Shown here in pieces: positions 15,213 through 57,992 of a DNA stretch of 57,992 nt. The notes beneath the pieces were generated by a model. That model had not been told where the DNA came from. It saw only the letters and a list, made by a program, of their open reading frames with translations, and did no database searches. The DNA is from a virus: the IMG/VR virus record IMGVR_UViG_3300033141_003442. One strand, 5' to 3'. The translations under genes were made by a program, and so were the position numbers. The first letter of the stretch is position 1, and the number at the start of each line of letters is the position of its first letter.

Positions 15213-15704
15213 ATGATTAAATTTCTTGCATACAAAGGCACTGATTGGCTGGCTAAAGTAATTAAGTGGGAAACTCAGTCAGATTATTCCCACATAGCAT
15301 ATCTTTATGATGACAACCATATAATAGAATGTTGGCCTGAGCATTGGTATCAATTGTTGAATGTAAGGTGGAATATCAGGCCAATGTTTAAAGGATACAA
15401 AAAGGGTGATGAATACGAGATATGGGGCTTAGAGGTTTCGGACGGACAAGCTTGTGTTATTCATAATTTCTTTCTAGGGCTTGTAGAGAAGAAAGCCAAA
15501 TTTGATTATGTAGCTGGATTTGGATTATTTACAAAATGGAAGAAAGAAAAAATAGGACAATATTTTTGCAGTGAAGGATGTATTACTCCACTTGTAAGAA
15601 TATTTGATTGGACACATATTAAGCCTTGGAAAGTAACGCCTGAAAATTTCATACAAATTATTCAGGCTTGTGGTGGGAAGTTAATAGAAAAAGGTAAAGT
15701 TTAA
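15213..15704 (+). CDS. Putative permuted papain-fold hydrolase (YiiX/YaeF-like); assignment tentative
   Basis: His-containing motif (SHIAYLYDD) precedes a Cys motif (QYFCSEGC), consistent with permuted NlpC/P60-like enzymes. Confidence 0.35.
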   Translation: MIKFLAYKGTDWLAKVIKWETQSDYSHIAYLYDDNHIIECWPEHWYQLLNVRWNIRPMFKGYKKGDEYEIWGLEVSDGQACVIHNFFLGLVEKKAKFDYVAGFGLFTKWKKEKIGQYFCSEGCITPLVRIFDWTHIKPWKVTPENFIQIIQACGGKLIEKGKV

Positions 15705-18764: not shown

Positions 18765-18811
18765 ATATATTTTTTATATTAAATCGTTCTTTTTGTCAAT
18801 TTACCATTGCC

Positions 18812-18840
18812 TTGACAAAATTATGATTATAATTTATCAT
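18812..18840 (+). promoter_or_regulatory. Sigma70-like promoter TTGACA-N17-TATCAT upstream of the portal gene
   Basis: TTGACA at 18812-18817, 17-nt spacer, TATCAT at 18835-18840; lies in the divergent terL/portal intergenic region. Confidence 0.4.
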
Positions 18841-18857
18841 ATCCATAATAAATTCTT

Positions 18858-20774
18858 ATGAGAAAAAAGAAAGAAATAGATGTTATTTTAGAACGATATG
18901 AAGAAACAAAGTCTGCCTATAAGGATTTTTGGAAAAAGGCTGAAGAAAGCTACGGCTTTGTTTATGGCAACAAATATCAATGGTATGTAGATGGAAGCGA
19001 CAAATACTATAAAGATTTAAAAGATGCAGAGCGCCCTACTTTATCTATAAATAGAATACAGGCCAAATTAAATCTCCTTGATGGTTATTTTCTTACTACC
19101 AGATATGATATTAAATTCCGTCCACAACAAAAGAAAGACCAAGAAATAGTTGATATAGCTAATCAATTATATAAATTAGTTTGGTATCAAATAAAAGGCG
19201 ATGCGATTGAAGGAGAAGTTTTTTATAATGGCATAATTTCAGGAGAGCATTATTTTTATATTTATCCTGATTATTCTAAAGATATTATTCGTGGTGATGT
19301 AGGTCTTTGTGCTTGTTCTCCATGGGAGATAATGTTTGACCCACGAGCAAAACGATATGATAAAACAGATGCTGAATATGTCTTTAGGTCTGTATGGCTT
19401 CCCATAGAAACAATTAAACGAAGATGGCCTCAAAAAGCCAGACAAATAGATAAATTAGTTAAAGTTTTAACTATTATCTCTACTGAAGGATTTGAAGCTC
19501 TTAAACAAAGCGTTCATATTACACATCCTTACGATAGATGGAGAGATGCTTTATCACGGCCTTATAATATTAAAGCAAATGAAGGAAGAATAGATGAGTA
19601 TTGGTATAAAACTTGGGAAAAAGTTGAAATTATTGTTGATGCTATTACAAAAAAAGTCATTGATGAAAGTGAAATAGACAAAGAAACCTTGGAAATTAGG
19701 AAAAAAGCTGGAGATATAGAAGTTTTAACCAGATATATTCCTAAAGTAAGAGTTAAATATTTGTTTGGAGATATAGAGCTTAGTGATGAACCTTCTCCTT
19801 GGACAAAAGGAGAATTAGCAAAGAATTTCCCTTTTGTTCCTTTTACAATATATAAAATATATTTACCTACAGAAAAGAAATATTTAATCTGGGGTGCTGT
19901 AGAAGTTCTTAAAGATGTTCAAAGAGAGATAAATAAAAGGCATAGTTATCTTGTAGAGGCTATGCTTAATGCTCCTTATAGTGTTTTAATATATGAAGAC
20001 CAAACTTTTACTCCTGAAAGTGAAGAAGCTTTAAGCAAAAAAGGTTTCCGCCCAGGTATGTCTTTAAAAACTTATCCAGGGAAAATAAATAGTTATAAAA
20101 TTGAAAACACTGTGCAATTCCCTGTAGGTTTATTGGAATTAGAAAATTTAGCTCTTAAAGACGCTGATATAGTTTCTCCTATTATTCCGCCTTCTGGTAA
20201 AGTTAAATCTGGTTCTGCAATGCTTCAAGAAGAAAGAATTATGCTTACAGATAAAGCAAGAATATTTAATAATTTCAAAGATACAAAAATACTTTTAGCT
20301 AGATATTTATTTAATGCTATTCAGCAAACTTATGATTATGAGAAAACTTTTAAGGCTGTTGACAGCGATGAAGAATATACTATAAATCAAGTAGTTTTTG
20401 CTACCAAAACAGAGCCTCATCCACTTACTGGTTCTCCTGTTGAAACTGTTGTTAGAGATAAATTTGGCAGGCCTGTAATAGAAAAAATAGTAAATGATAT
20501 TACAAATGAAGCTCTTGATTTTGATATTATTGCTACTGAAGTTAATGCTTCACCAAGTTATAGATTAGCAGTAGCCAATGATTTATTAAAAATAATTCAG
20601 ACAACGCCAAATCCGATTTTTATTAAAATGTTGTTTGAATATCTAGATTTACCTTCCCATATTAAAAAAGAATTAGAGCAACAAATGAATGCTCAAACGC
20701 AGCAAGCATTACAACAACAAAATTTGCCACAAAATATAAGACAGTTACAAACCCCATTCAAGCAAGGAGGATAA
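18858..20774 (+). CDS. Probable portal protein
   Basis: 638 aa, size and position next to terL; general resemblance to portal proteins; not verified by search. Confidence 0.5.
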   Translation: MRKKKEIDVILERYEETKSAYKDFWKKAEESYGFVYGNKYQWYVDGSDKYYKDLKDAERPTLSINRIQAKLNLLDGYFLTTRYDIKFRPQQKKDQEIVDIANQLYKLVWYQIKGDAIEGEVFYNGIISGEHYFYIYPDYSKDIIRGDVGLCACSPWEIMFDPRAKRYDKTDAEYVFRSVWLPIETIKRRWPQKARQIDKLVKVLTIISTEGFEALKQSVHITHPYDRWRDALSRPYNIKANEGRIDEYWYKTWEKVEIIVDAITKKVIDESEIDKETLEIRKKAGDIEVLTRYIPKVRVKYLFGDIELSDEPSPWTKGELAKNFPFVPFTIYKIYLPTEKKYLIWGAVEVLKDVQREINKRHSYLVEAMLNAPYSVLIYEDQTFTPESEEALSKKGFRPGMSLKTYPGKINSYKIENTVQFPVGLLELENLALKDADIVSPIIPPSGKVKSGSAMLQEERIMLTDKARIFNNFKDTKILLARYLFNAIQQTYDYEKTFKAVDSDEEYTINQVVFATKTEPHPLTGSPVETVVRDKFGRPVIEKIVNDITNEALDFDIIATEVNASPSYRLAVANDLLKIIQTTPNPIFIKMLFEYLDLPSHIKKELEQQMNAQTQQALQQQNLPQNIRQLQTPFKQGG

Positions 20775-20777
20775 GGC

Positions 20778-21752
20778 ATGGGTGAAGAAGAAACCAAAGA
20801 AACAATAGAAAACCCTGAGGAAACTTTATCTCCAGAAGGAACTGAAGAAACTACAAAGCCACAAGTATCTTCTGAAGAAACTGAAAAAGAACCTGAAACA
20901 CCGCCAGAGAAAAAAGATAAAGAATATAATTTTAAAGTTTTAAGAAATGAATTAGAAAAACAGAAGAAGTTAGTTGATTATTATGCTAATCTAGCAAAAC
21001 AAACACAAACTCAGCCAGTTCAACCACCTTATGATATTCCTAAGCAACCATTTCCACAGAATATTCCACAAACTCCTCTTATTCCTACACCAACAATGCC
21101 TACTTCTTTTAGTCCTGTGCCACCTAATGTTACTCCAACTTCGCCTACTTTATCTAAAGATATAACTGAGTTTAGCCCTGAAGAAGAAACACAAATAGCT
21201 GAAGCAGATGATCCTGCTGCTAAAGCAAAAGAAATTTTACAAAATAAAATTCGTGCTTATACTGATTATATTTATCAAGCACAAGCCCTACAGCAACCAC
21301 AAATCTCTCCAACAGATATTGCTCGTTTAATAGATGAAAAGGTAAATGAAAAATTAGAAATGGATAGAGTGCAAAGAGGATTAGAAGAAGTAAGCCAAAA
21401 CCCAGAATTTATTGAACTTGTTAAGAAACATGTAGAACCTACTAAAGATAGATTAGCATCTTTCTGGAATAGTTTTTATGTATTTGGAGAAAATGCAGGT
21501 AAGGTTTTGTATGAAGTTTTAAAGGCTTTAGATAAAAGTGAGCCAGAGGTAGCTAAGGAAGCTTTTAAAGCTGGGCAAAAACAAATTGTTGAAAAGTTAC
21601 AGCAAAGAGCAACAGCTCCAACTCCACCTATGGGTAGAGTATCTACAAAAACAGAATATACAGCAGAAGATTTAGAAAATATGTCTGTTGATGAGATAAT
21701 GAATGTTCCACCTGAAATAATAGAGAAATGGAGAAAAGGAGAATTGGATTAA
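20778..21752 (+). CDS. Hypothetical protein, acidic N-terminus and Pro/Gln-rich (scaffold-like?)
   Basis: 324 aa directly after the putative portal; low-complexity P/Q/T-rich region. Confidence 0.3.
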   Translation: MGEEETKETIENPEETLSPEGTEETTKPQVSSEETEKEPETPPEKKDKEYNFKVLRNELEKQKKLVDYYANLAKQTQTQPVQPPYDIPKQPFPQNIPQTPLIPTPTMPTSFSPVPPNVTPTSPTLSKDITEFSPEEETQIAEADDPAAKAKEILQNKIRAYTDYIYQAQALQQPQISPTDIARLIDEKVNEKLEMDRVQRGLEEVSQNPEFIELVKKHVEPTKDRLASFWNSFYVFGENAGKVLYEVLKALDKSEPEVAKEAFKAGQKQIVEKLQQRATAPTPPMGRVSTKTEYTAEDLENMSVDEIMNVPPEIIEKWRKGELD

Positions 21753-45420: not shown

Positions 45421-45936
45421 ATGAAGCAAGGATATAAAGTAAAAAAGGAAGAAATTAGAGAAATTGTAAGACTTTATGTTAAAGAGCATTTGTCTTGTGG
45501 GAAGATTGCCAAAAAGATAGGAAAGATTAGCAGACAACAAGTATGGAATGTATTGAAAAGTTATGGAGTAAATACAACTAAAAAAGATAATGCAGAAGTT
45601 GAGGTTAGATGTGAGTATTGTGGCCAAGTTTTTAAACGGAAACGCTATATTTATTTGAAAAGTCATAAACATTTCTGTTCTTTATCATGTTACCACAAAT
45701 ATTTAAAATTGTCTTCTTATTTTGAGTGGAGACAAGGCCAAAGGATTGCTAGAAAAGTAATTCAATCACACTTTCCTGAAATTGATAGTTTATATCCTAA
45801 TTGGGTAGCCCATCACATTGACGGTGATTGCACTAACAATCATATTTCTAATCTTATGGCTTTTAAATGCCAAGGAGACCATATTAAATGGCATCGTTCC
45901 AAAAATAAACCTAAGCCAATTTGGCCAAAGCAATAG
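45421..45936 (+). CDS. HNH endonuclease with N-terminal HTH and Zn-finger
   Basis: HTH-like SCGKIAKKIGKISRQQVWNVL; CEYCGQ...CSLSC; HNH motif WVAHHIDGDCTNNHISNLMAFKCQGDHIKWH. Confidence 0.7.
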   Translation: MKQGYKVKKEEIREIVRLYVKEHLSCGKIAKKIGKISRQQVWNVLKSYGVNTTKKDNAEVEVRCEYCGQVFKRKRYIYLKSHKHFCSLSCYHKYLKLSSYFEWRQGQRIARKVIQSHFPEIDSLYPNWVAHHIDGDCTNNHISNLMAFKCQGDHIKWHRSKNKPKPIWPKQ

Positions 45937-46059
45937 CCTGCCTTTTTAATTCCTGTCAAACTGTGCCCATGTGCCCTATTTTACTTTGCTTTTCACAACC
46001 AGAGCATTGCCCTTATGCGTTCTAGTTTACTTTGTTGCTTGATTGCTTGGCTGTTTTTT

Positions 46060-46125
46060 TAGGCAGATGGGGGGGTAGGAAAAGGCAGGGGTGAGGGGCG
46101 TTATGAGGGGGTTATATTCCCACCT
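46060..46125. other. G-rich tract cluster followed by a C-rich partially complementary segment (potential G-quadruplex or strong hairpin)
   Basis: gatgggggggtaggaaaaggcaggggtgaggggcgttatgagggggttat then tcccacctcactctccacgcc; stands out in an AT-rich genome. Confidence 0.4.
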
Positions 46126-46141
46126 CACTCTCCACGCCATG

Positions 46142-46160
46142 ATTTAGAATAATTCTAAAT
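46142..46160. promoter_or_regulatory. Perfect 19-bp palindrome ATTTAGAAT-A-ATTCTAAAT immediately upstream of the late-operon -35
   Basis: Read directly; followed by taagaatggttc and TTGACA at 46173-46178. Confidence 0.55.
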
Positions 46161-46172
46161 TAAGAATGGTTC

Positions 46173-46201
46173 TTGACAAACAGTTACAAATGTGTTATAG
46201 G
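46173..46201 (+). promoter_or_regulatory. Candidate late promoter TTGACA-N17-TATAGG (TG at -15/-14) upstream of the capsid gene
   Basis: TTGACA 46173-46178, 17-nt spacer, TATAGG 46196-46201; capsid gene follows with a strong SD. Confidence 0.4.
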
Positions 46202-46347
46202 ATATATATCTGGCAGTATAGGAGTTCGCCACTCCGTTCTTTTATTTCTTAGTTTTCCTATTATTGGCTGTAGTAGGTTTCGCCAGCCTAAAGATAAATG
46301 GGTTTACGTGTAAACGTATAATAAATTTATATAGGAGGTAAAGAAAG

Positions 46348-47352
46348 ATGGCAGATTGGAAACCTGGGAGTTCAATGTATGCAAAGAGGTATGCCACATC
46401 TACCTTTATTGAATATAAGACTGGTATTTGGTGGGACAAGCATGGATATGTGGGGAAGGATGAGAACAATGTAATACAGTTAATAGAGGATTTCACGAGG
46501 GAACCTGGTAATAGTATGAGGTTTTATTTGACTATGGTGCCTGAAGGAGACCCGATTGTTGATGATGATACCTTAGAAGGCAACGAGATGAATATTACCA
46601 ATTACTATCAGGACGTAACGCTTCATGAGTATCGTGGTGGTATTCGTCTTTATGGTAATATGGAAGAGAAGGCGGTTGCCTTTAATATGAGGGAGACAGC
46701 GAGGAGAGTATTAGGAATTTGGAAGAGGCAGGAAACGGGTGATGCTATATTTAGTGCATTAGCCAGTTCTCCGACCAAGGTTATATATGGTGGGGATGCT
46801 ACTTCTACTTCTACTTTAGAGTCTAGTGATTTATGCAATCTTAAGCTTTTATTGCATGCTGCTACTTATGCGGAAAGTGTAGCTGACCCTCGTATTCCTC
46901 CGTTAATAATAGATGGTGAGGAGAAGTATATAGTTATTTTGCACAAGCATTGTTTATCTGATATGCAGTTATATGATAGTGATTTTCGTGCATTAGGGCA
47001 GAGTGTATATCAGAGAAATAGTGATAATCCTTTGATTAAGAGGGCTGCTTTTGTTTACAATAATCTTATTGTTTATTCTACTGATAAGATACCCACTGCT
47101 GATAATTGGGGTTCTGGCGGTGATGTTCATGGAGCTACCAATTTATTGCTTGGTGCTCAAGCAGCTCTTTTAGGTAGGGGCAAGACCAAAGGTGGAGTTA
47201 TTCCTCAATTTGATTGGAGAGAGCAGACTTGGGATTATGGGCATAAATATGGTATTGCTGTTGGTGAAACCAGAGCATTAGCCAAGACTGTTTTTAATTC
47301 CAAGGACTTTTCTACTGTAGCTATTAGGACTGCTGCTAATAGTTATGCTTAA
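46348..47352 (+). CDS. Probable major capsid protein
   Basis: 334 aa; very strong SD (TATAGGAGGTAAAGAAAG-ATG); first gene after the late promoter; size typical of capsid proteins; not verified by search. Confidence 0.45.
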   Translation: MADWKPGSSMYAKRYATSTFIEYKTGIWWDKHGYVGKDENNVIQLIEDFTREPGNSMRFYLTMVPEGDPIVDDDTLEGNEMNITNYYQDVTLHEYRGGIRLYGNMEEKAVAFNMRETARRVLGIWKRQETGDAIFSALASSPTKVIYGGDATSTSTLESSDLCNLKLLLHAATYAESVADPRIPPLIIDGEEKYIVILHKHCLSDMQLYDSDFRALGQSVYQRNSDNPLIKRAAFVYNNLIVYSTDKIPTADNWGSGGDVHGATNLLLGAQAALLGRGKTKGGVIPQFDWREQTWDYGHKYGIAVGETRALAKTVFNSKDFSTVAIRTAANSYA

Positions 47353-47369
47353 TAAACAAGGAGGATTTT

Positions 47370-47906
47370 ATGCCAAAAAGTAAATTATCCGAGGAAGAAT
47401 TGGAAAAGATTAAGGAAGAAGTAATAAAGGAAGCTTCTCCTTATTCTGAAGGTAATCTTATAATTAAGGCAAAAAAACTGCGTGAGCCAGCTCCTCCACT
47501 TGAAAAATTAGGAATAAAAGCTTCTGATGTAATTAAATGGGTTGGTCCCGTTTCAGAGGATTATCAAAATTATCCATCTATACCTGTTAAGATAAGAGGC
47601 AGGTTTGTAGATGTGGTTTTTGATAGAGTTTATAAAGGATATAAGTATTGTGCTCATGTTCCTAATGATGTTATTAAGGCTGAAATATTTTGTAAATTCT
47701 TTTTTAATCCAGCGACAGATAGGACTGAGGTAGTTGTTAATAAGGATGTAGCTTTTGTTCTTCCCAAAGCTCAGGCAAAACAAAAGATTAGGCAGTTAAA
47801 GAGCATTTTTCTTAAAAGACATCGCAATTCTCCTGAAGCTTATGATATAGCAGACCATGTGGTGACTGTAGCTGATGTTGCAGCAGCCTTAGGGGAGGGT
47901 TTGTGA
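47370..47906 (+). CDS. Hypothetical structural-module protein (178 aa)
   Basis: ORF with SD AAGGAGGA. Confidence 0.5.
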   Translation: MPKSKLSEEELEKIKEEVIKEASPYSEGNLIIKAKKLREPAPPLEKLGIKASDVIKWVGPVSEDYQNYPSIPVKIRGRFVDVVFDRVYKGYKYCAHVPNDVIKAEIFCKFFFNPATDRTEVVVNKDVAFVLPKAQAKQKIRQLKSIFLKRHRNSPEAYDIADHVVTVADVAAALGEGL

Positions 47907-48223
47907 TGGCTAGGGCTAAAAAGAAAAAGAAGGTTAAAGAAGGCCCTTTTTTACAAACGCCAAGAGCTAAAAAAAGACCTGGGAAGACAGTTGCTCCTAG
48001 TGGAATACAGGTAATTAAGCCTGTTAAAAAAGGGCAGAAGCCTATTGCTTTTAAAAAAGGAGCATTAACAAAACAGGCTGCCAAATATGGTATGACGCCT
48101 AGAGAGTTTTGCCAGAGCAAAAAAGGAGATTCTCCTTTAAAACGCAAGAGATGCACTCTTGCCTTTAAGGGAGCATTAGCTGCGGGAAGAAAAACATTAG
48201 CTGCTAAAAGGAAGAAAAAATAG
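47903..48223 (+). CDS. Highly basic Lys/Ala-rich protein (histone- or protamine-like; candidate DNA-binding internal protein)
   Basis: 106 aa with KKKKK runs throughout; no hydrophobic core; embedded in the structural module. Confidence 0.5.
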   Translation: MMARAKKKKKVKEGPFLQTPRAKKRPGKTVAPSGIQVIKPVKKGQKPIAFKKGALTKQAAKYGMTPREFCQSKKGDSPLKRKRCTLAFKGALAAGRKTLAAKRKKK

Positions 48224-48237
48224 GGGAGGTTAAGGTT

Positions 48238-48699
48238 ATGGGAATAGAAAAATATATTATCAGTCCATATGAGCCTGCTTCTGCATGGGCTGGTTTAATC
48301 TGGGTGGATACTTCTGCTACTCCTTATATAGTGAAGATGAGAAATAGCACTAATACAGCTTGGATTAATATATTTGGTAAAGCTAGAATAGTGGATAAGA
48401 CAAGTAATTACACTGTTACTAAAGAGGATTCGTTTACTGTTTTTACCAATAAAGGTGCTACCAGCACAGTTACATTTACATTGCCTGCTGCTGAAGCTGG
48501 ATTGAAATATACTTTTGTTAGAATAGCAAGCCAAGAAGTTCGTATTGACCCTAATGGAAGTGAAACTATTGCTGGTGGTAGTGCTGGTAAATATGCTATT
48601 TTGGATGCTGACTATGAAAGTATTACTGTTCAAGCTACCCAGACAGGCAAATGGGAAGTTGTGGCTTATTATGGCTGGGGAGGAACTTTTGAATCTTAA
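48238..48699 (+). CDS. Hypothetical structural-module protein (153 aa)
   Basis: ORF with SD GGGGAGG. Confidence 0.5.
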   Translation: MGIEKYIISPYEPASAWAGLIWVDTSATPYIVKMRNSTNTAWINIFGKARIVDKTSNYTVTKEDSFTVFTNKGATSTVTFTLPAAEAGLKYTFVRIASQEVRIDPNGSETIAGGSAGKYAILDADYESITVQATQTGKWEVVAYYGWGGTFES

Positions 48700-48729
48700 T
48701 TAAAATAAAAATAAAGGAGGAAATAGCAA

Positions 48730-49149
48730 ATGGCAACTGATAGTTATTTTTTAAAACATTGCAGGACAAATTTACAAGTAGGGGCAGTTGAGGGTAATTG
48801 TCTTTGTTATGTAGATACCAGTGAACATAATCTTGCCAGTGGAGATACCTGCCCAGTGCTTTATATTCCTGAGAATTGTCTTGTTAGGCGTGTTACTGTG
48901 ATAAATGTTACTGCTGAAGGTGCGGCTGCTACCCTTAAAGTAGGTGATGGTAGCGATGATGATGGTTGGGATACCGATGCTAATGTGAACTCTGCTGGAA
49001 CGATTACCATTGGTGATGGTGCTTATGCCAGTGCTAATGGGAAAATATATGCTTCAGCGGATACAATTGATGTTATTCCAAGCACTGATTTAGACCAAGC
49101 TACTTTTTGGGTAATAGCAGAATTTTTCAAACTGCCTGATAATGATTAA
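48730..49149 (+). CDS. Hypothetical structural-module protein (139 aa)
   Basis: ORF with SD AAAGGAGG. Confidence 0.5.
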   Translation: MATDSYFLKHCRTNLQVGAVEGNCLCYVDTSEHNLASGDTCPVLYIPENCLVRRVTVINVTAEGAAATLKVGDGSDDDGWDTDANVNSAGTITIGDGAYASANGKIYASADTIDVIPSTDLDQATFWVIAEFFKLPDND

Positions 49150-49155
49150 GTTTTG

Positions 49156-49216
49156 TTGGGGAATAAGGTATAAAAAGTGTTGATTTTTACCCATTAACTT
49201 CTGCCTTATTCCCCAA
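49156..49216. other. 13-bp perfect inverted repeat (TTGGGGAATAAGG ... CCTTATTCCCCAA) with 35-nt loop inside the late operon
   Basis: Arms 49156-49168 and 49204-49216, followed by TTTTAAAAT; candidate attenuator, terminator or RNA element. Confidence 0.45.
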
Positions 49217-49237
49217 TTTTAAAATAGGAGAAGTTAA

Positions 49238-49882
49238 TTGTCTCAAGTATCTACTATAATTCAATATATTGGGGATGAATTAGGGCAGGGTATAACAATA
49301 ACTTCTACTTCAAGACCTTCTACCGCAGAGATTATAAGGCGGATAAATAGAACAACCAAAACTTTTGCTAAAATTCTTGCTCAATACCAGAGTGATTTAT
49401 CTAGAGAAGAAGGCACTATAACAACTATTGCTGGCACGGCAGAATATGCTGATTTAGCAAGTGAAATGTTAACTCCAGATGACACAGCTTATTATATAGA
49501 TGGAGATAGTAAAGTTCCTATTTATAAAAAAAATTACCAAGAAATTCTTTATTTACCAACTGATTCTGCTGCACCTTATTACTTTTATGTAACTAAAAAC
49601 AATCATATAGGATTTTATCCTACTCCAGATGATACTTATACAATAAAAGTGCCGTATTGGCATATTGGAAAAGAAGTTTCAAGTGAGAATGATGATATGC
49701 CATTTAAAGGAATGTTAGATGATATTTATGTGGAAGCTATTGTAAGACGGCTTTTGAATAGAGATGAATTTAATGTTGATTTTGAAAGTAAATGGTTACA
49801 GTTTGTAACTATGAATATATTAAGCACACTTAACTTAAGGAGAGAAAATTTAACACAATTAGGGAAGAATGACTACTTATGA
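49238..49882 (+). CDS. Hypothetical structural protein (214 aa, TTG start)
   Basis: ORF with SD GGAGAAG before TTG. Confidence 0.45.
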   Translation: MSQVSTIIQYIGDELGQGITITSTSRPSTAEIIRRINRTTKTFAKILAQYQSDLSREEGTITTIAGTAEYADLASEMLTPDDTAYYIDGDSKVPIYKKNYQEILYLPTDSAAPYYFYVTKNNHIGFYPTPDDTYTIKVPYWHIGKEVSSENDDMPFKGMLDDIYVEAIVRRLLNRDEFNVDFESKWLQFVTMNILSTLNLRRENLTQLGKNDYL

Positions 49883-51483
49883 GCATACGGTCTTCTAAAC
49901 ATCAAGGACAAACATATATATTTATTAAAAAATTTAAAGGAGTAAATATTGCCAATAGTCCTTGGTATGTAAGTGAAGAAGATGTTGGTTCTCTTTCAGT
50001 AGGAACTAATGTTATTTTTGATAGAAATGGGGTTTTAAGAACTCGCTACGGTTTAACTCAAAAAACTTCCACTGCTTTATCAAATCCGATAGATTGTATT
50101 CATTATTTTATATATGATAAAGTAAATAATAAAAAACAATATTTAGTTACTTCAGGACATAAATTATATAAAGTCGTTCAAGGCACTACAGATTGGTCAT
50201 TTACTTCAATAGGAAATTTAACAGGAACTAATCGCCCTACTATATTTTCTTCAGAAGCTTTATTTAATGGCAAAGCTATTATAGCTTCTGGAGGTAAATT
50301 ACAATCTTATGATTATACTAATTTAGAGACTATAACAGGTGTGAGTTTACCAGAGTTTACCAGTGGTGATGGAACGCTGGACGATTTAAGTGCTCAGGGA
50401 ACTTATACAGGCTCTGCTGATTATACAGATTATGTAGTTAAAATAGATGCTAAGGGTAGTCCTGATACTTTTAAATGGTCTGATGATGGTGGTGATACTT
50501 GGGAAGCTACAGGAGTAAGTATTACTGGTGATTGGCAGGATTTAAATAATGGTATTCAAATTAAATTTGATAACACTACTGGGCATGAAGTAGATGATTA
50601 TTGGACTTTTAGGGCTTATTACGCTCCTAAAGCAAAATGGGTAATAATGCAAACAGCCTCTTTAATTGTTTCTGGAGATTCAAATAATCCAAGTTATGTA
50701 TATGCCAGTGGAGTAGGAGATGAAACAGGATGGTATACAGATAATCCAGTTAACTGGGCAAAGCGTATAGATACAGGAAATGTTATTGGATTAACTTCAG
50801 TTGGTGATTATGTTATTGCTTTTTGCCGAGACCCAGAAGAAATAAATTTATTAGATTTTATTGATTGTAAATTACGCCAGTTAGTTAAAGGTGTATCTGC
50901 AATAAATCATTATTCTATTGTTACTATTGGCTCGTTTGTTTTTATTATTGATAATGATGGAATAAAACAAATTGCTTTAGGACGGTCAACAGGTAAAGGT
51001 AGATTAAGTGACCCTATAGGAGAAAATTTTGTTTCTCCAGATGAAGACCATGCTTTTGCTTTTTATTATCCTCCACATGCCCAATTATGGTTTATTTTTG
51101 AAAACTCAAATTATGCTTGGTGTTATCATGTTATACATAAAGCTTGGACTAAATTAGTTTTCCCAATTACTATAACATCAGCTTATTACAATCCAGATGC
51201 CCAAGAGCTTATTTTAGGTGGGAATGATGGGCATCTTTATTTATATGACCCTGATAATTTTATAGAAAGTTTTGATGTAGAAATAATTACCAAATTCTTT
51301 GAAGCAGACCCTCTTAATGAGGCTTTATATGATGTATTGGAATATACATTTGAAAAATTAAGACCAGGAACTATTACAGCTTATGCTGTTGATGAATTAG
51401 AAAATGAAACTGAAATCGGCTCTACTACATTTGGTGGTTATGGTAGAGGAACTTATGGAAGTAGTAATTATGGAGAAGGATAG
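49879..51483 (+). CDS. Hypothetical tail/baseplate-like structural protein (534 aa)
   Basis: Long ORF with start/stop overlap to neighbours; Gly/Thr/Ser-rich. Confidence 0.5.
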   Translation: MSIRSSKHQGQTYIFIKKFKGVNIANSPWYVSEEDVGSLSVGTNVIFDRNGVLRTRYGLTQKTSTALSNPIDCIHYFIYDKVNNKKQYLVTSGHKLYKVVQGTTDWSFTSIGNLTGTNRPTIFSSEALFNGKAIIASGGKLQSYDYTNLETITGVSLPEFTSGDGTLDDLSAQGTYTGSADYTDYVVKIDAKGSPDTFKWSDDGGDTWEATGVSITGDWQDLNNGIQIKFDNTTGHEVDDYWTFRAYYAPKAKWVIMQTASLIVSGDSNNPSYVYASGVGDETGWYTDNPVNWAKRIDTGNVIGLTSVGDYVIAFCRDPEEINLLDFIDCKLRQLVKGVSAINHYSIVTIGSFVFIIDNDGIKQIALGRSTGKGRLSDPIGENFVSPDEDHAFAFYYPPHAQLWFIFENSNYAWCYHVIHKAWTKLVFPITITSAYYNPDAQELILGGNDGHLYLYDPDNFIESFDVEIITKFFEADPLNEALYDVLEYTFEKLRPGTITAYAVDELENETEIGSTTFGGYGRGTYGSSNYGEG

Positions 51484-51498
51484 TTAGGAGGTTTAAAT

Positions 51499-53004
51499 AT
51501 GGCAAGGTTACCAGTAATTGGTCAAGATGAAGATAGCTGGGGTGGTATTTTAAATGAGTTTTTACAAGTAGGACATTATGAAGATGGAACATTAAAGAGT
51601 GGATTAGGAGCATATTCAGCAATTGTTTATATTGATGGTAGTTCTGTAATTGCAAGGGATTATAAAGGCGATTTGATTGCTTCAGGCACAGCAGGCACAG
51701 ATGATTACTCTGTATTACAGGCTGCTATAAACAATCAATCAGGTCTAATCAAAGTTATAAGTGATTTGACTTTGACTAATAAAGTAGAACCTGCAAGCAA
51801 TATAATTTTAGATTTCCGTGGGCAGACTATAAAATCTGCCTTTACTAATGCCATCATTCAAAAAACAACTACGGGTAATGATATTACTATAATTGGAGGG
51901 ATTTTTGATTCTCAAAACAGCTATGCCACTCCAATTGCCTTTTACAATATAACTAATTTGAGAATAATTGATGTAGAGGTTAAAGATGTCAATGTTACAG
52001 ATGGTGGATATGGGATATACATTGAGGATTGTGATTATGTTTGGATAATAAATCCAAAAATCTCAAATATAACTTCAAGAGATGGATTACAATTCAAGGG
52101 CGTGCATAATGGTTGGATTATCAATCCTTATGTGAATTCGGCTTCTATTTATGGGATTGATTGCCATGCTTCCACAACTCCAAGATATTGTGAGGATATT
52201 TATATTGTTAATCCTAAAGTTTATAACTCTCAGAATGGAATTCATCTTGCTGATACATCCTTTCATTTAATTAATCCCCGAATTACTGGGTCATCTGCTA
52301 ATGGATTGACCATTGATGGTGATGGAACTGTAGTATATATAATTTCTCCTTACATTTATAATTCGGGTCAAAATGGTATTAATACTTACGATGCTACTAG
52401 TATAAGCTTTCTTCAGGTGATAGGTGGTGAAATAGATACGACGGGAGCAGATAAGGATGGAATGTATCTTAAGAACATAACTAAGACAAAAATTGAGAAT
52501 ATTTTTATTCATAATGCAGGAAGATATGGAGTGAATGTTCAGAGTGATAATATTGATATTAGTTTTGCTGAAATAAAAGATTGTGGTAATCATGGTATTT
52601 TCATTGGAGGAAAAAGTCATACTCGTATAATCAACAATGTCATTAAAAATAATGGAGGATATGGCATTCTTGAATACACTGGTAGCGATAATAATGTGAT
52701 AGAATTGAATGAATTTAGCGGTAATACTTCTGGTGCTGTTTCTAAGGTTGGCAGTAATACTAAAGTGCAAAATAATATTGGTTATGTTACCGAAAATGAA
52801 AGTTCAGCTACAATCACTAATGGCAATACCTCTGTAACGGTAAATCATGGCCTTGTTGATACTCCTACTAATATTCAGTTGACTGGCACTCATAGCGAAG
52901 TAAAAGATGCTTATGTTACAAACCCGGGTGCTACGAGTTTTGATATTACTGTAGATGCTGCAGTAACAGCAGACAGAACAGTTTATTGGAAAGCTAAGGT
53001 ATGA
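51499..53004 (+). CDS. Tailspike / tail fibre with right-handed beta-helix (pectate-lyase-like) repeats
   Basis: Recurrent beta-helix motifs (GGYGIYIED, NGIHLAD, NGLTIDG, NGINTYD, GRYGVNVQ, NHGIFIGG, GGYGILEYTG). Confidence 0.6.
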   Translation: MARLPVIGQDEDSWGGILNEFLQVGHYEDGTLKSGLGAYSAIVYIDGSSVIARDYKGDLIASGTAGTDDYSVLQAAINNQSGLIKVISDLTLTNKVEPASNIILDFRGQTIKSAFTNAIIQKTTTGNDITIIGGIFDSQNSYATPIAFYNITNLRIIDVEVKDVNVTDGGYGIYIEDCDYVWIINPKISNITSRDGLQFKGVHNGWIINPYVNSASIYGIDCHASTTPRYCEDIYIVNPKVYNSQNGIHLADTSFHLINPRITGSSANGLTIDGDGTVVYIISPYIYNSGQNGINTYDATSISFLQVIGGEIDTTGADKDGMYLKNITKTKIENIFIHNAGRYGVNVQSDNIDISFAEIKDCGNHGIFIGGKSHTRIINNVIKNNGGYGILEYTGSDNNVIELNEFSGNTSGAVSKVGSNTKVQNNIGYVTENESSATITNGNTSVTVNHGLVDTPTNIQLTGTHSEVKDAYVTNPGATSFDITVDAAVTADRTVYWKAKV

Positions 53005-53143
53005 AATTAACAAGATGGAGAATATTTCCACCTACTTTATTAAGAGATAGAAGTTATAAATTTAAAATAACCAGTAGTGGAATTATGTTTAAATTATATT
53101 CTTTAAGTATAAGTATTAAAACAGTTAAAAAGGTAGGAAATTA

Positions 53144-54331
53144 ATGACTATTACGGACGGGAAAGGTGATTTAATTTATTCCAGTAGAGATTTAAAAAGA
53201 AAATTTCCAGAACAAGGTTTTTATAACCATATCAAAATTGATACTAGTGGTATAGTTTTAAGTAATAGTTGCCGTCCTTTTTTAGATATAGATGGGAATG
53301 CTATAAATGATGGTAGTATTCCTGATAGTAAAATAATAGATGTAGATTTTGCCAAAATAAAAAATGTTTTAATAGATACAGCACAAATTAAAGATGCTGC
53401 CATTACAACTGCTAAGATAGCCGACCTTGCCGTAACAAATGCCAAAATAGCAAATGCTGCTATTACTAATGCCAAAATAGCTAATTTAGCCGTAACAAAT
53501 GCTAAAATAGCTGACTTATCTGCTTCAAAAATCAATGCAGGATATATTGTTACTACTCAATTAGAGGCAGGTTCTAATCCTTCCACTGGATGTATTTTGG
53601 ACGGTAATGGTTTACGAGCCTATAAATCAGGCACAAAGATGGTGGATATAAGCGAAGACCCATTTTTTAGAGGTGTAGGGCATTTTGGGGATGATAATTT
53701 TTTTATAGAAATAGGGAATGATACTTATCCAGGATATATTTTGTTTGAAAAAGATAGTGAATACAAAACGCAGATTTATATAGCAGGGACAAATTATAAT
53801 GAGTTATATATTACTGCAAAAAGTAGAATACACTTTTTCCCTGGAAGCGCAGTGCGGTTTAGGGTCACTGATACAGAAAATATTTCAATCACTCTTCGTC
53901 CTTGGTCAGATGCCGCTTCTGACCTTGGAACATCCTCTTATGCATGGAACAATGTTTATTATTGTGTGGCAAATGATGTTTGCTCGCTTGGAGTAGTAGA
54001 AGAAATATCAAATCCACTTGAACTGCTTAAAAATATTAAGGTCAGTAAAGACAAATATACCCCAAAAGAAATCCCTAAGGCAGATTACAAAACTCTACCC
54101 AAATTTATTAAAACGGTAAAGTATAGTGATTTAAAAAAGAGTAAGAAAAACTTTAAAGAACATTTACAAAGCGTTTTATCTAAAAATGCAGAAGTAACTT
54201 ATGAGGATGATAAAAAAGTAACTGTAAAAATAGAGGCATTAGATATAACAGCAACAATAAGTCTATTATTAGGGGCTATAAGACAATTAAGTGAGAAGAT
54301 AGAAGCATTAGAAAGGGGTAATATACAATGA
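53144..54331 (+). CDS. Tail fibre protein with tandem A/T-K-I-A repeats
   Basis: Repeats AAITTAKIADLAVTNAKIANAAITNAKIANLAVTNAKIADL; C-terminal coiled-coil-like region. Confidence 0.55.
   Translation: MTITDGKGDLIYSSRDLKRKFPEQGFYNHIKIDTSGIVLSNSCRPFLDIDGNAINDGSIPDSKIIDVDFAKIKNVLIDTAQIKDAAITTAKIADLAVTNAKIANAAITNAKIANLAVTNAKIADLSASKINAGYIVTTQLEAGSNPSTGCILDGNGLRAYKSGTKMVDISEDPFFRGVGHFGDDNFFIEIGNDTYPGYILFEKDSEYKTQIYIAGTNYNELYITAKSRIHFFPGSAVRFRVTDTENISITLRPWSDAASDLGTSSYAWNNVYYCVANDVCSLGVVEEISNPLELLKNIKVSKDKYTPKEIPKADYKTLPKFIKTVKYSDLKKSKKNFKEHLQSVLSKNAEVTYEDDKKVTVKIEALDITATISLLLGAIRQLSEKIEALERGNIQ
53389..53520 (+). repeat. Tandem roughly 30-nt coding repeats in the tail fibre gene
   Basis: Repeated gccgtaacaaatgccaaaatagc-like units; these create the spurious antisense ORF 53221..53535. 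Confidence 0.65.
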
Positions 54332-54516
54332 AAGAATTAAAACAAAAAATTATGGAAATACTTGCTGTATTTAAACAAGAAGAATTAGGTAATAGGCTTT
54401 CTCAATTTTCTATAAATGGTCTAATTATAGCAATTGATAATGTATTTGAGGAAGAAATGAAGAAAGATAAAAAGGAGGAAAAGATAAATGGCAAAGATGT
54501 TCAAAAGAACAAGTGA
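54328..54516 (+). CDS. Hypothetical protein (62 aa)
   Basis: ORF track; stop/start overlaps. Confidence 0.35.
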   Translation: MKELKQKIMEILAVFKQEELGNRLSQFSINGLIIAIDNVFEEEMKKDKKEEKINGKDVQKNK

Positions 54517-55099
54517 TACTGATATGGTAGGAACTTTTCTTGCACTGCAAAAAGTAAGTGATAAGTATCCCTGGGGTAATGGTTTTACTTATCTTTTAAT
54601 GCTTAATCCTTCTCCTTCAGATTTGGATGGTGATGATACATTGGATTATGAAGAAAAAACAAATATTACTGATACTTCTGAAGCATTACAAATTGGTAAG
54701 ACTTTTGTATTTGCAGATTTATTACCTGCAGATGGTAATTTACCAAGAGTTGCACGTGGCGGTTATGTTAGGGCTGTGGTGCAGGCTGGCATTGCAAGAA
54801 CAGGTAGCACTGATGGAAATGTTTATCTGACTAAAATCACTTTTGACCTGGGCTATGTAGATTCCAGCAGCAACTTTATTTCTAAATCTAGTGCAAACGC
54901 AACACCTAATTTTCACACAAATGAGACGGATTATCAGCTTTGTAGTAGCCAAGTTTGGCTTGATTATAATTTTGATATACCTAGCGGGTATATGCTTGCT
55001 CTGCGAGTAAGGCTTTATGGTTATATTGCTACAACTGAAAGTGGTAAGATGAAATTGTGTTGTAGTAGGGGCTCTTCCGACAGTTATCTGGAGTTTTAG
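54488..55099 (+). CDS. Hypothetical structural protein (203 aa)
   Basis: ORF with SD AAAAGGAGGAAAAG. Confidence 0.5.
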   Translation: MAKMFKRTSDTDMVGTFLALQKVSDKYPWGNGFTYLLMLNPSPSDLDGDDTLDYEEKTNITDTSEALQIGKTFVFADLLPADGNLPRVARGGYVRAVVQAGIARTGSTDGNVYLTKITFDLGYVDSSSNFISKSSANATPNFHTNETDYQLCSSQVWLDYNFDIPSGYMLALRVRLYGYIATTESGKMKLCCSRGSSDSYLEF

Positions 55100-55102
55100 G
55101 AG

Positions 55103-55291
55103 GTGAATATGAAAGTTTTGGGCTTGTCATATTATCCACTGGATTGCAGGTTAGGAAAATGGTCGCCAGATGAAGTCCGTGAAAACATGTATCGCTCACC
55201 AATTTACAGAATGTTGCGAAGCTTGCCACACAGCATGATATATACGAGAGTGCCTTGGAAACAGATACAAGGAGGAAATTGTGCCAAGTAG
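55103..55291 (+). CDS. Hypothetical protein (62 aa)
   Basis: ORF with SD AGGAGGTGAATATG. Confidence 0.4.
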   Translation: MNMKVLGLSYYPLDCRLGKWSPDEVRENMYRSPIYRMLRSLPHSMIYTRVPWKQIQGGNCAK

Positions 55292-55487
55292 AAGTAGGGC
55301 TCAACACCGTTTAATGAGTATGGCTTATTGTTATAAGAAAGGACAATGCAAATTATCAAATTTTCCTATAGGTGTAAGAAAGAAAATACAAAAAATAGCT
55401 AAGAATATGACTTTGAGCCAATTAAGAGATTTTGCTAAGACAAAAGAAACTGGATTGCCATATAGAAAGAAAAAACGGAGGAAATGA
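55281..55487 (+). CDS. Small basic protein (68 aa)
   Basis: ORF track; Lys/Arg-rich C-terminus. Confidence 0.35.
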   Translation: MPSRSRAQHRLMSMAYCYKKGQCKLSNFPIGVRKKIQKIAKNMTLSQLRDFAKTKETGLPYRKKKRRK

Positions 55488-55708
55488 AAATGCCATCTAA
55501 CAGTAATAATCTTATTGGGATTATTAACAGAGAGACATTTGAAACATTAGATACTGAACAAAAGTTGCAATTGATTTATGGAATTTTACTTGAGATACAA
55601 AAAGAAATGAAAACAAAAAAGCGAGCAGATAAATTTTTTAGTTTTGTTGGCGGAGTTATAGGTGGCATTCTTTTTTGGTTAGGCATAAAAATAAATAAAG
55701 GAGGATAG
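55484..55708 (+). CDS. Small protein with C-terminal TM helix
   Basis: C-terminus FFSFVGGVIGGILFWLGIKI. Confidence 0.4.
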   Translation: MKMPSNSNNLIGIINRETFETLDTEQKLQLIYGILLEIQKEMKTKKRADKFFSFVGGVIGGILFWLGIKINKGG

Positions 55709-55716
55709 AATATATT

Positions 55717-56688
55717 ATGTATCAGGCAAGTGGTTATTTAGAAGTAAATGGCACTAAATTTCCTGTTGTTATGGATAATGGTATTTATTATTTAATGGAC
55801 CCAAATACAGAACAAGCCATTGCTTATTTTAATCCTAGCGACCCTAATTTACAAATTATGGATTATAATACAAATCAACCTATAGGAGTATTTGACTATA
55901 ATAATAACAGAGTAATTGGTATTGGTGCTTATGAAGGGATTGTAGGTTCTTATAGACCTTTTACATCTGCAACAATAAATGAAGTTTTTACTCCTATTGG
56001 AGAAACTGTTATAGGCAATACTCAATATTTTGTTGCTCCATATCAAGGTAAGAATTGGCTTATAAATCCACAAACAGGTGAAGCTCCTTTTTATGCAGAT
56101 GATAATGGGAATATTTATGATGCTGTAACAGGCCAAATAGTGGGGAAAGGACAACCAGACCCAACTTCACCTACTGGTGCATGGACTGTTACTATTGGTA
56201 ATGCCATAGGTGCTTATCAGCCTTATCAAGCAGGATTTAATATTCCTACTAATTTATTTCCTTTTACCACAAGAGAGCAAGAAGAGCAAAGTTGGCAAGA
56301 AAGTCAAAGCCGTCAATATTTGCCTGAATGGGCAGCTAAATTATTAGAAGAAATAGTAACTACTTTAAAAAATCCATCTGCTTTTGCTTATTCTGTTAAA
56401 CCTGCAATAAATCAAGCATTTACTAGAACATTAGGAGAGTTAGCTAAAAGAGGAGTGATAGGTGGACGTGCTGGCGGTAGTAGTGTTGTTTCTAAAGCGT
56501 TAGGAGAAGTAGGTAGAGCTATACCTCAAGCATGGGGACAAACATTAATAGGTGCAGGAGGGTTGTTAGGGCAGGCAAGAGAAGCTACTGCACAAAGTAG
56601 TGGTGGTGGTTGGGGACGGTCTTATACTTACCAGGCCAATCCTTTAGCACCATATACTTTAATGGGAAGTTTATTAGACTTATTATAG
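55717..56688 (+). CDS. Hypothetical virion protein (323 aa), Gly-rich C-terminus
   Basis: ORF with SD AAAGGAGGATAG. Confidence 0.5.
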   Translation: MYQASGYLEVNGTKFPVVMDNGIYYLMDPNTEQAIAYFNPSDPNLQIMDYNTNQPIGVFDYNNNRVIGIGAYEGIVGSYRPFTSATINEVFTPIGETVIGNTQYFVAPYQGKNWLINPQTGEAPFYADDNGNIYDAVTGQIVGKGQPDPTSPTGAWTVTIGNAIGAYQPYQAGFNIPTNLFPFTTREQEEQSWQESQSRQYLPEWAAKLLEEIVTTLKNPSAFAYSVKPAINQAFTRTLGELAKRGVIGGRAGGSSVVSKALGEVGRAIPQAWGQTLIGAGGLLGQAREATAQSSGGGWGRSYTYQANPLAPYTLMGSLLDLL

Positions 56689-56698
56689 GAGGCTAAAG

Positions 56699-57097
56699 AT
56701 GGATTATATTAAAATTAAAGCTATATTAACAAATGCTTTAATGAATGGAGATATGCAAACTACTGCAGCTATTCTTGCTCAATTAGGTATTGACCCTAAT
56801 ATTGCTTTAACATATATGAATGCTATTACTCCAAGGATACCAGGTGAAGTTCCAGCAAATAGTTTATTTGATTTATTAGGAGCAACTCCTAGAATGTCTC
56901 AATTACAGCCTCCCCCTGCTACTACTCAGCAACAACAACCACAAATTCCTACTCTTCCTCAATCTCAATTTAAATTAAATCTTAAATCTTCTACTCCTGA
57001 TATAAATAAGAATTTGTATTGGCAACCTGGGCAAACGCCTAATACTACAACTACTACCAGTCGTAAGAAAGACCTTATTTCTTTATTAGGGCTATAA
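56699..57097 (+). CDS. Hypothetical protein (132 aa), Gln/Pro/Thr-rich
   Basis: ORF with SD GGAGG. Confidence 0.45.
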   Translation: MDYIKIKAILTNALMNGDMQTTAAILAQLGIDPNIALTYMNAITPRIPGEVPANSLFDLLGATPRMSQLQPPPATTQQQQPQIPTLPQSQFKLNLKSSTPDINKNLYWQPGQTPNTTTTTSRKKDLISLLGL

Positions 57098-57099
57098 AA

Positions 57100-57558
57100 A
57101 TGAAAGGCATTTTAATTGCAAATGATGCTATTTGGCAAAAGTATAAAGAGCAATTACTTCCCTTAATGGAAGATTATAATAAAAGAGCTAAAAAGCATTG
57201 TGTATTTAATGATTATAAAGATTGGGATATGGTAGAGTGGATAGATAATTTTATAAATTATCCACAAATTATGATGTGTGCTATTTGGGATGAAGAAAAA
57301 GATAAATTTATTGGATTTGTTGTTTTTGAGATAGTAAATTTCGTAGATATGATAATCTTATTCTGGAGACAAACTTATGTTATTCCTGAAATAAACTTTT
57401 CAAAAATTATTGGGAATATAATAGAAATTATAACGCCAATTTCTTTATTTTTAGGAATAAATTTATGGATAACTTTAAGTTTGAGTGATTCAATAAATAA
57501 AGTTTTAAAGAAATATGATGTTACTCATAGTGGATATTTTTGGAAGATAAAAATATAG
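57100..57558 (+). CDS. Membrane protein (hydrophobic C-terminal segments)
   Basis: IITPISLFLGINLWITLSL segment. Confidence 0.4.
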   Translation: MKGILIANDAIWQKYKEQLLPLMEDYNKRAKKHCVFNDYKDWDMVEWIDNFINYPQIMMCAIWDEEKDKFIGFVVFEIVNFVDMIILFWRQTYVIPEINFSKIIGNIIEIITPISLFLGINLWITLSLSDSINKVLKKYDVTHSGYFWKIKI

Positions 57559-57572
57559 TAAGGGGGTGAATT

Positions 57573-57992
57573 ATGCCAGCACCAGTAGCTGCAGCAGGAA
57601 TAATTGGAGCGAGCACTTTAGGTGCAGCAGCTTTGAGTAAAGGAGGCCAAAAAGCAGGTAAAGTTCCTAGACCTTCAGCAGAAGAAAGGTCACTTCAAAA
57701 AGCTTTATTACCTTTATTATTATCTTCTTTATATGAAAAACCTGAAGATGCTTTACGTGCTCCTAAAAGTTGGACACAAGAAGAATGGGAAGCTTATTTA
57801 AGGGAAACAGGTATCCCTGTTGATTTAGTTAAATCAGGTATTTTAAGTAAGTATAAAAAAACAATTGATGAGATTGAGAAAATGATTGCTGGTATGTCAG
57901 AAAGAGAAAAAGAAGAGCTTGCACCAATTATTGAAGATTATGAAAGATATAAAAAATCTTTAGAACCAGGGTTAAAATCAGTTCCATTATCG
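57573..57992 (+). CDS. N-terminal portion of the junction-spanning ORF (continues at window position 115-480)
   Basis: ATG 57573 with SD AGGGGGTGA; open to the window end, in frame with ORF 4..480 through the duplicated 114 bp. Confidence 0.6.
   Translation, partial: MPAPVAAAGIIGASTLGAAALSKGGQKAGKVPRPSAEERSLQKALLPLLLSSLYEKPEDALRAPKSWTQEEWEAYLRETGIPVDLVKSGILSKYKKTIDEIEKMIAGMSEREKEELAPIIEDYERYKKSLEPGLKSVPLS

Follow-up and report, generated by a model that had tools for sequence, protein, structure and literature searches.

In the usual description, tailed phages pump naked DNA into their heads and its charge is balanced by Mg2+ and polyamines; to our knowledge, protein counter-ions are textbook matter only for T4 among them. 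The T4 internal proteins IPI, IPII and IPIII are small and basic, are loaded into the prohead before the DNA and are packed and injected with the genome; the genes for them vary and move between related phages. In other viruses, the protamine-like, highly basic proteins mu of adenovirus and J of phiX174 neutralize and condense the encapsidated genome. The same has been described for adenovirus protein VII (PMC5491326), and VP2 of SSV1 was purified from virions, binds DNA and is patchily distributed among fuselloviruses (PMC3367457). Domains of the arginine-arm type were not detected in tailed phages when capsid charge was surveyed (PMC7096446). In this study, we analyzed a gene for a small, extremely basic protein in the head module of a virus genome of 57,992 nucleotides, IMG/VR record IMGVR_UViG_3300033141_003442 (the whole stretch is here called the window). 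The product belongs to a large, unnamed family that is missing from Pfam, PHROGs and the PDB; it is abundant in metagenomes and hardly represented among cultured phages. Basic internal and core proteins are a known kind, comprising the T4 internal proteins, adenovirus VII and mu, phiX174 J and SSV1 VP2, but the family matches none of these by sequence or fold. We tentatively regard it as a head-loaded, nonspecific DNA-binding protein that neutralizes charge, a role we consider possible and short of probable.

The gene and its product

The open frame at positions 47903-48223 on the + strand is uninterrupted in both the list of open reading frames (ORFs) and the sequence. The features assigned to it are given below, with amino acids (aa) counted from the preferred start and model confidence as the predicted local distance difference test (pLDDT).

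47892..47899, + strand: Shine-Dalgarno sequence GGGGAGGG, with the ATG 6 nt downstream (from the sequence and a comparison of upstream regions)
47906..48223, + strand: coding sequence of the super-basic protein, 105 aa, ATG start, TAG stop at 48221-48223 (from composition, homolog starts and dN/dS)
47906..47995, + strand: N-terminal basic arm, aa 1-30 (MARAKKKKKVKEGPFLQTPRAKKRPGKTVA; from the alignment and the long-form motif; pLDDT 59-69)
47996..48187, + strand: predicted folded core, aa 31-94 (AlphaFold2 pLDDT 80-92, invariant columns, profile matches)
48188..48220, + strand: C-terminal K/R tail, aa 95-105, RKTLAAKRKKK (modeled as the end of helix 90-104)

An initial annotation of this DNA had described a 106-aa ORF dominated by K, R and A whose start overlaps the upstream stop codon, and this description holds, with 105 aa from the preferred ATG. 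The TGA in question (47904-47906) ends the gene of a 178-aa protein; it is overlapped by GTG at 47903, an alternative start that adds one residue, and, by one base, by ATG at 47906. We placed the coding sequence at 47906-48223 because the ATG has the Shine-Dalgarno sequence 6 nt upstream and gives a homolog-type N terminus, "MARAKKKK," which agrees with the "MA(K/R)..." and the equivalent Met of the homologs. Judged from these sequence features, ATG 47906 is more likely than GTG 47903 to be the true start. A slippery-type heptamer, G GGT TTG (47897-47903), lies one base before the stop of the 178-aa gene and coincides with the leader formed by the Shine-Dalgarno sequence and its spacer. A -1 frameshift at this site, fusing the 178-aa protein to the basic ORF, was considered and rejected, as the heptamer is the ribosome-binding leader of the basic gene itself. 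It is judged coincidental because the leader, GGAGGGTTT, recurs in front of the homolog of relative L016, where it follows an unrelated gene, and because every homolog has its own start.

The 105-aa product contains 27 K (26%), 8 R (8%), 14 A (13%), 1 D and 2 E (K+R 33%, D+E 3%), with an isoelectric point (pI) of 11.5, a net charge of +32 and a grand average of hydropathy (GRAVY) of -0.9. By composition it is the most basic of all ORFs in the window.

Conservation and selection

The gene is real, conserved and under purifying selection. Ratios of nonsynonymous to synonymous substitution (dN/dS, Nei-Gojobori) were 0.16 against relative L015 (94% aa identity), 0.095 against L016 (73%) and 0.18 against L004 (57%), and 10 of the 18 nucleotide differences from the close relative L015 are at third codon positions. 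A word-indexed search of 5.8 billion proteins found 12 close homologs with 42-95% identity. Their profile had 133 matches at E<=1e-3, counted as representatives at 50% identity, and 47 at E<=1e-10 among 1.84 billion cluster representatives. With a broader profile, at least 773 clusters (at 90% identity) were obtained from metagenomes, all of them annotated "hypothetical" and none with a Pfam domain. The hundreds of homologs stem from genomes spanning 33-72% GC. No relative was found with window-clade patterns in 185,579 species-representative bacterial and archaeal genomes, which therefore gave no prophage or host clue.

The initial annotation had named a chance ORF of low complexity as the alternative if conservation were lacking. 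An origin by chance from A-rich DNA, or as the shadow of an opposite-strand gene, could be suspected from the 33% GC of the genome, in which K-rich codons are A-rich, and from a 114-aa antisense ORF that overlaps the basic gene. However, dN/dS far below 1, the mostly third-position differences from L015 and the GC range of the homologs leave this explanation a negligible likelihood. The antisense ORF itself (47812-48156, - strand), F/L-rich and a mirror of the Lys codons, is interrupted in several relatives, among them L015 (95% identical), and is therefore not a gene.

Family features and predicted structure

The family consensus reads M..KKK.VTI.KKGKKPI.F.KGGLH..LGVP.G.KIP..K..AAL.GKYGP.AKK.A.FAFKGALAAGRKTA, with a K/R tail behind it. 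The window protein represents a long form that has an extra N-terminal arm, K(A/E)GP(F/Y)..T.RAKK.PGKTV..GGT.VI, and the window clade carries "LTKQAAKYGMTPREFC" in place of the "LH..LGVP.G..IP" stretch. The window protein scored 54 bits (E 2e-15) against the hidden Markov model (HMM) of the broad family and shares its defining features, i.e., the invariant Gly, Pro, Leu and Ala residues, small size, pI >10 and location in the head module. In the close alignment, G43, K45, P46, G52, L54, G74, A86, K88, G89, A90, L91, A92, G94, R95 and T97 are invariant.

An AlphaFold2 model from a 96-sequence alignment had a mean pLDDT of 80.5 and a predicted template modeling score of 0.61, with residues ~31-104 predicted to be ordered. 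In this model, a core beta-hairpin (34-37/47-50) carries the motif KKGxKPIxFKKGAL and is followed by helices 53-60, 65-70 and 77-88 and then 90-104, which starts with the invariant FAFKGALAAGRKT motif. The basic arm is probably flexible, because model confidence is low there, and the C-terminal tail differs in length and K/R mix across the family alignments. The protein thus modeled would be a small folded core with basic tails and not a structureless protamine. This contradicts the earlier description of an ORF with no hydrophobic core: the region predicted to be ordered reaches pLDDT 80-92, and the invariant residues include G, P, L, A and F and not only K/R.

Searches of Pfam, PHROG and PDB sequences with the protein, its 12 close homologs and 10 distant members gave only subthreshold matches to PF25632, and no fold matches were found for the family. 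For HU/IHF, H-NS, linker histone and protamine, neither a Pfam domain match nor a similar fold was seen in the basic protein; a relation to histones, HU or protamines is not detectable. An identity as a ribosomal bS21/bL35-like protein is supported by no Pfam match. Two cysteines, Cys69 (48110-48112) and Cys83 (48152-48154), are conserved only in the window clade (window, L015, L016 and P0002-P0004); they might pair as a disulfide or bind metal between subunits.

Charge as the conserved property

A sample of 257 family members had medians of 86 aa for length, 11.45 for pI and +19 for net charge, and 94% of them had a pI >10. Across 18 loci of 33-72% GC, the share of arginine, R/(K+R), rises with the GC content of the locus (Spearman rho 0.62, p 0.0065); no such trend exists for the net charge per residue (rho -0.10). 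The conserved and selected property is therefore positive charge, not lysine, and the lysine richness of the window protein is the AT-rich spelling of a selected charge.

Genomic context

In the window, the basic gene lies within a string of + strand genes that starts with the major capsid gene, and the location between capsid-module genes given in the initial annotation is correct. The neighboring genes and the two packaging genes encoded elsewhere are as follows.

46348..47352, + strand: major capsid protein, first gene of the string (PF13252 E 9e-27, phrog_334 E 1.5e-45)
47370..47906, + strand: 178-aa protein with no assigned function, its stop overlapping the start of the basic gene
48238..48699, + strand: structural-module gene, 153 aa
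48730..49149, + strand: structural-module gene, 139 aa, resembling the gene after the capsid gene in L003
49238..49882, + strand: SU10-type head-to-tail adaptor, downstream boundary of the head genes (PF24175 E 2e-14)
17076-18764, - strand: TerL (phrog_5989), ~29 kb from the basic gene
18858-20774: portal (phrog_156)

A terminator scan found no convincingly placed terminator-like site between the capsid gene and the basic gene. The 178-aa protein is conserved only in the two closest relatives. In the parts of the SU10 structure report on the virion proteome, the ejection proteins and the DNA-contacting residues, no small basic head protein is named (PMC9509320).

About 16 independent lineages with the gene were recovered, with head genes called from Pfam/PHROG matches and from similarity to the TerL of the window. 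The position of the basic gene in them is listed below.

Window, L014 and L015: after the capsid gene and one further gene
L024: directly after the capsid gene
L009-L011 and L030: after the capsid gene and one or two small genes
L001, L018 and L019: directly after the portal gene, before the scaffold and capsid genes
L022: after the portal gene and one further gene
L002 and L003: directly before the scaffold and capsid genes
L017: directly before the SU10 adaptor gene
L032: between the TerL and portal genes
L012, L020, L021, L023 and Tunturi_3: upstream of TerS/TerL
L004 and L016: after the gene of a 1,828-1,860-aa protein
HTVC027P (L007): behind the genes of two large proteins (893 and 835 aa), with the capsid gene ~5 kb further downstream
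L031: no context assigned

In ~13 of the 16 lineages, the gene is thus no more than two genes away from TerS/TerL, portal, scaffold, capsid or adaptor genes. In an all-against-all BLASTP comparison of the neighborhoods, it formed the only cluster common across lineages, and the lack of a co-conserved partner favors a generic ligand such as DNA. L021 and L024 have the same gene order from TerS to capsid, yet the basic gene precedes TerS in L021 and follows the capsid gene in L024. Similarly, the order "giant protein ... metallophosphoesterase" is common to L016 and the window, and the 73%-identical copy of L016 lies between those genes, a different site in a related gene order without other detectable similarity. 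Differing positions in related phages show that the gene moves as a cassette: it is self-contained and passes between unrelated phages while staying in or near the head module. Of the synteny that was to be checked, linkage to the head module was therefore recovered, while the exact position varies and no partner gene is conserved.

The five lineages with the gene upstream of TerS/TerL bear on two other functions. An identity as the small terminase subunit (TerS) would fit this position as well as the size and expected DNA binding of the protein, TerS being likewise a small, DNA-binding product of a head/packaging-module gene. It is nevertheless highly improbable, since the window gene and TerL are ~29 kb apart on different strands, and no TerS profile was matched. 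Moreover, separate TerS genes (phrog_309/1482, E 1e-7 to 1e-12) adjoin TerL in L001, L019, L021 and L024, all of which carry the basic gene. Alternatively, the protein could be a late DNA-binding accessory that stays in the cytoplasm and is not packaged, where it would help terminase to start on concatemers or coat replicated DNA, and might bend or compact concatemeric DNA. The same five positions, the strong positive charge and the late expression of a homolog (see below) agree with such a role, which we nonetheless hold to be rather unlikely. Most lineages separate the gene from the terminase and place it among portal, scaffold, capsid and adaptor genes, as in the window; bona fide TerS genes coexist with it, and no HU, IHF or helix-turn-helix-like domain was found.

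A cationic, disruptin-like lysis factor that permeabilizes the outer membrane at the end of infection would also be small, cationic, partly helical and late, and lysis genes do occur nearby at two loci (lysozyme PF00959 in L016, Peptidase_M15_3 in L002). Most copies, however, are inside head-gene strings far from lysins, and the Gly/Pro turn motifs, the predicted globular core and the GRAVY of -0.9 are unlike amphipathic antimicrobial-type peptides, which makes this function very unlikely.

Polyamines are the classical DNA counter-ion of phage heads. In L004, genes for spermine/spermidine synthase (PF01564) and AdoMet decarboxylase (PF02675; 476-1375 and 10926-11417) flank the basic gene. A link to polyamine synthesis was discarded as anecdotal, since the window has no such genes.

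Cultured phages and expression

Six family members were compared by tblastn with 50,697 phage genomes, which gave two weak matches only, both confirmed by HMM. One is gp44 of the pelagiphage HTVC027P (QGZ17825.1; family HMM E 4e-10). The other is an unannotated ORF of Tunturiibacter phage Tunturi_3 (E 1e-14; L008 5926-6183, PP885686.1 ~97336-97593), located at the end of the circular record and immediately upstream of the TerL gene (1-2061). The family is thus directly testable, because two cultured phages carry it. BcepMigl and MW202512, which have the nearest capsid proteins, lack a family member. The earlier remark that such proteins are uncommon in tailed phages is accurate for cultured phages (2 of 50,697 records) and does not extend to metagenomes.

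HTVC027P_gp44 was classed "Late" in an RNA sequencing (RNA-seq) time course, with ~4,800 transcripts per million at the last time point, compared with ~75,000 for the capsid gene gp59 and ~4,100 for the neighbor gp43 (PMC12753301, Table S3). This is the sole experimental datum on any family member. Late transcription would be expected for a role in the virion or its assembly and speaks against a function in early host takeover, and the level suggests an abundance that is moderate rather than capsid-like. So modest a level would also suit a protein acting in few copies at the portal or DNA end, or a nonpackaged accessory in packaging.

The former corresponds to a core or channel component like T7 gp6.7/gp7.3, present in 6-12 copies on the portal barrel or in the adaptor-nozzle channel, whose lysines would hold the DNA end and which would be ejected first. 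In T7, gp6.7 is a core protein of 88 aa, and K84/K85 of gp7.3 contact the DNA end (PMC11784390). Like the family, these T7 proteins have ~90-100 aa and are encoded among head/neck genes; they are internal to the virion and ejected. The gp44 mRNA level (~6% of capsid) fits a low copy number, and the gene follows the portal in L001/L018/L019 and L022 and directly precedes the SU10 adaptor in L017. On the other hand, the T7 proteins are low-copy and shaped for specific partners, and a core component would need lineage-specific ones, whereas the basic protein is 40-73% identical where portal, capsid and adaptor have no BLASTP similarity. A channel plug would also need far less charge than the net +20 to +43 that is spread over the entire chain, and no PHROG/Pfam or other sequence similarity to known core proteins, including the T7 pair, was found. 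We therefore consider this explanation unlikely.

Possible relationship to fusellovirus VP2

The subthreshold PF25632 (fusellovirus VP2) matches came from distant members carrying (K/G)(W/F)IQKAIK.PGALHRQLGVP and scored 14-17 bits, the best having E 0.011 and 16.6 bits compared with a gathering cut-off of 27. The window protein and its 12 close homologs had no PF25632 match at E<=1 and lie outside this Pfam family. For hhalign comparisons, four alignments were used, namely, the window clade (A1), the whole family (A2), 21 VP2-family sequences drawn from SSV1 VP2 and 40 relatives (A3), and 20 members of the phage subfamily with the above motif (A4). A3 and A4 matched over 70 columns with a probability of 84% (E 7e-6), and trimmed alignments gave 90% and a score of 34.5 (E range 2e-6 to 7e-6). 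Since 200 column-shuffled versions of A4 scored only 8.8 ± 1.9 (maximum 14.4), i.e., ~13 standard deviations below the real score, and reversed A4 scored 8.5, the similarity is not an artifact of composition. A4 in turn matched A1 with 98.6-99%. A single VP2 sequence reached 1.9% against the broad family alignment, so that only the subfamily comparison is informative.

Like the family, VP2 is small (74 aa) and very basic, and its gene is patchily distributed. It shares W-I-Q-K-A-I-K-x-P-G-x-(L/V)-H-R-x-L with the "FIQKAIK..GALH" phage subfamily, which includes HTVC027P gp44 (KFIQKAIKKPGSL...; subfamily motif KFIQKAIKxPGxLHRxLG...). The AlphaFold model of VP2 (pLDDT 84) has helices 13-21, 35-47 and 52-73, and downstream of a conserved Gly they are collinear with window-protein helices 53-60, 65-70 and 77-104. 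VP2 lacks the beta-hairpin KKGxKP motif and the FAFKGALAAGRKT motif of the window protein, and it is linked to the latter only through the intermediate subfamily. It also belongs to spindle-shaped archaeal viruses without a packaging motor, unlike tailed phages. Taken together, the profile comparisons make homology between VP2 and the phage subfamily plausible, with a slight lean in its favor, but unproven. If it is true, SSV1 VP2 gains its first relatives outside fuselloviruses.

A gene for a dual-specificity phosphatase occurs near the basic gene in the VP2-like subfamily. It is adjacent in the metagenomic contig L027 (1125-1628) and one gene away in Tunturi_3 (L008 5162-5671).

Proposed function

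The interpretation as a head-loaded protein of the packaged DNA is preferred here because charge is conserved, no partner is conserved, gp44 is expressed late and a link to VP2 is possible. From this we infer DNA binding, presence in the virion, copy number and a role after ejection. Binding to DNA would be electrostatic and independent of sequence; as 40-73% identity is kept across phages with unrelated capsid, portal and adaptor proteins, DNA is the most likely ligand. The protein would be made late alongside the capsid proteins and loaded into the procapsid. Loading would precede packaging because the terminase motor translocates bare duplex DNA and T4 internal proteins enter likewise, and such timing would explain the coexpression with capsid and scaffold genes. 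Inside the head, it would remain associated with the genome, serving as a counter-ion or condensing agent, and would probably exit together with the DNA. Each copy could neutralize ~32 phosphates, such that ~400 copies would offset ~11% of the 115,756 charges of the genome and tens of copies <2%. The suggestion in the initial annotation of a packaged DNA-condensing or internal protein is in keeping with a conserved, selected and head-module-linked gene; a simple protamine-like, unstructured nature is not.

Several observations weigh against this interpretation. A gp44 transcript level of ~6% of that of the capsid gene fits tens rather than hundreds of copies, by which little charge would be neutralized, and neither a capsid-targeting signal nor a protease site is recognizable in the basic protein. 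The gene position just upstream of the terminase in five lineages could point to a packaging role. As to VP2, the link is only transitive (hhalign 0.2% for A3 against A1 and 3-6% against A2), the significant part of its match to the subfamily is mainly a ~22-column motif, and VP2 is dispensable for SSV1 (PMC3367457).

Compared with the described systems, the family resembles the T4 internal proteins in size, basicity and gene mobility. It shows no sequence or profile similarity to them in the PHROG scan and is not of T4 type. Unlike them, it is found in genomes of podophage type, and its proteins are much more basic and begin with a conserved basic arm, with no capsid-targeting sequence or prohead-protease site that could be recognized. 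With adenovirus VII/mu and phiX174 J, there is no relation in sequence or fold; realms and packaging routes differ, and the likeness is one of analogy only. A broader proposal, i.e., a "viral protamine" in the form of a mobile counter-ion cassette that is packed with the genome and is homologous between the motor-packaging tailed phages of bacteria with 33-72% GC and VP2 of the archaeal fuselloviruses, is doubtful; such a protein may also shield the incoming DNA after ejection. If it is correct, many tailed phages package more than naked DNA, and the virion contents of two unrelated realms are linked. If the protein is packaged, as in the preferred interpretation, so widespread a family with charges of +20 to +40 in head modules of uncultured podophages would require new estimates of the pressure inside the head, of packaging density and of the energetics of ejection. 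The family could also be a coinjected protective or anti-defense factor.

Further features of the window

The window has an exact direct terminal repeat of 114 bp (1-114 and 57879-57992) and therefore represents a complete circular assembly of 57,878 bp, a podophage genome; no tRNA genes were found in it. Its morphogenesis genes fall into two parts, of which one (17076-21752) comprises TerL (- strand), the portal gene and a gene for 324 aa, and the other covers 45421-57992. A ~24-kb block of minus-strand early/replication genes precedes the capsid gene at 46348, with an HNH endonuclease gene (45421-45936) immediately 5' of the latter. The SU10-type adaptor is followed by a 534-aa protein and then a beta-helix tailspike.

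A giant ORF of 2,075 aa (2097-8324) has almost no family matches. Its counterparts in relatives are 1,828-1,860 aa long and show a weak LAGLIDADG_3 match (L004 3767-9349, L016 3502-8988); it may be an internal virion/ejection protein or contain an intein. ORFs of 392 aa (9554-10732, - strand) and 364 aa (9686-10780, + strand) overlap almost completely on opposite strands, and the latter (pI 10.2) has no family match. Finally, a PAPS-reductase-like gene (phrog_424, E 1e-39) is located in 15213-16405, after a 163-aa gene with an "enoyl-CoA hydratase-like" PHROG match, and this region may be a DNA- or nucleotide-modification module.

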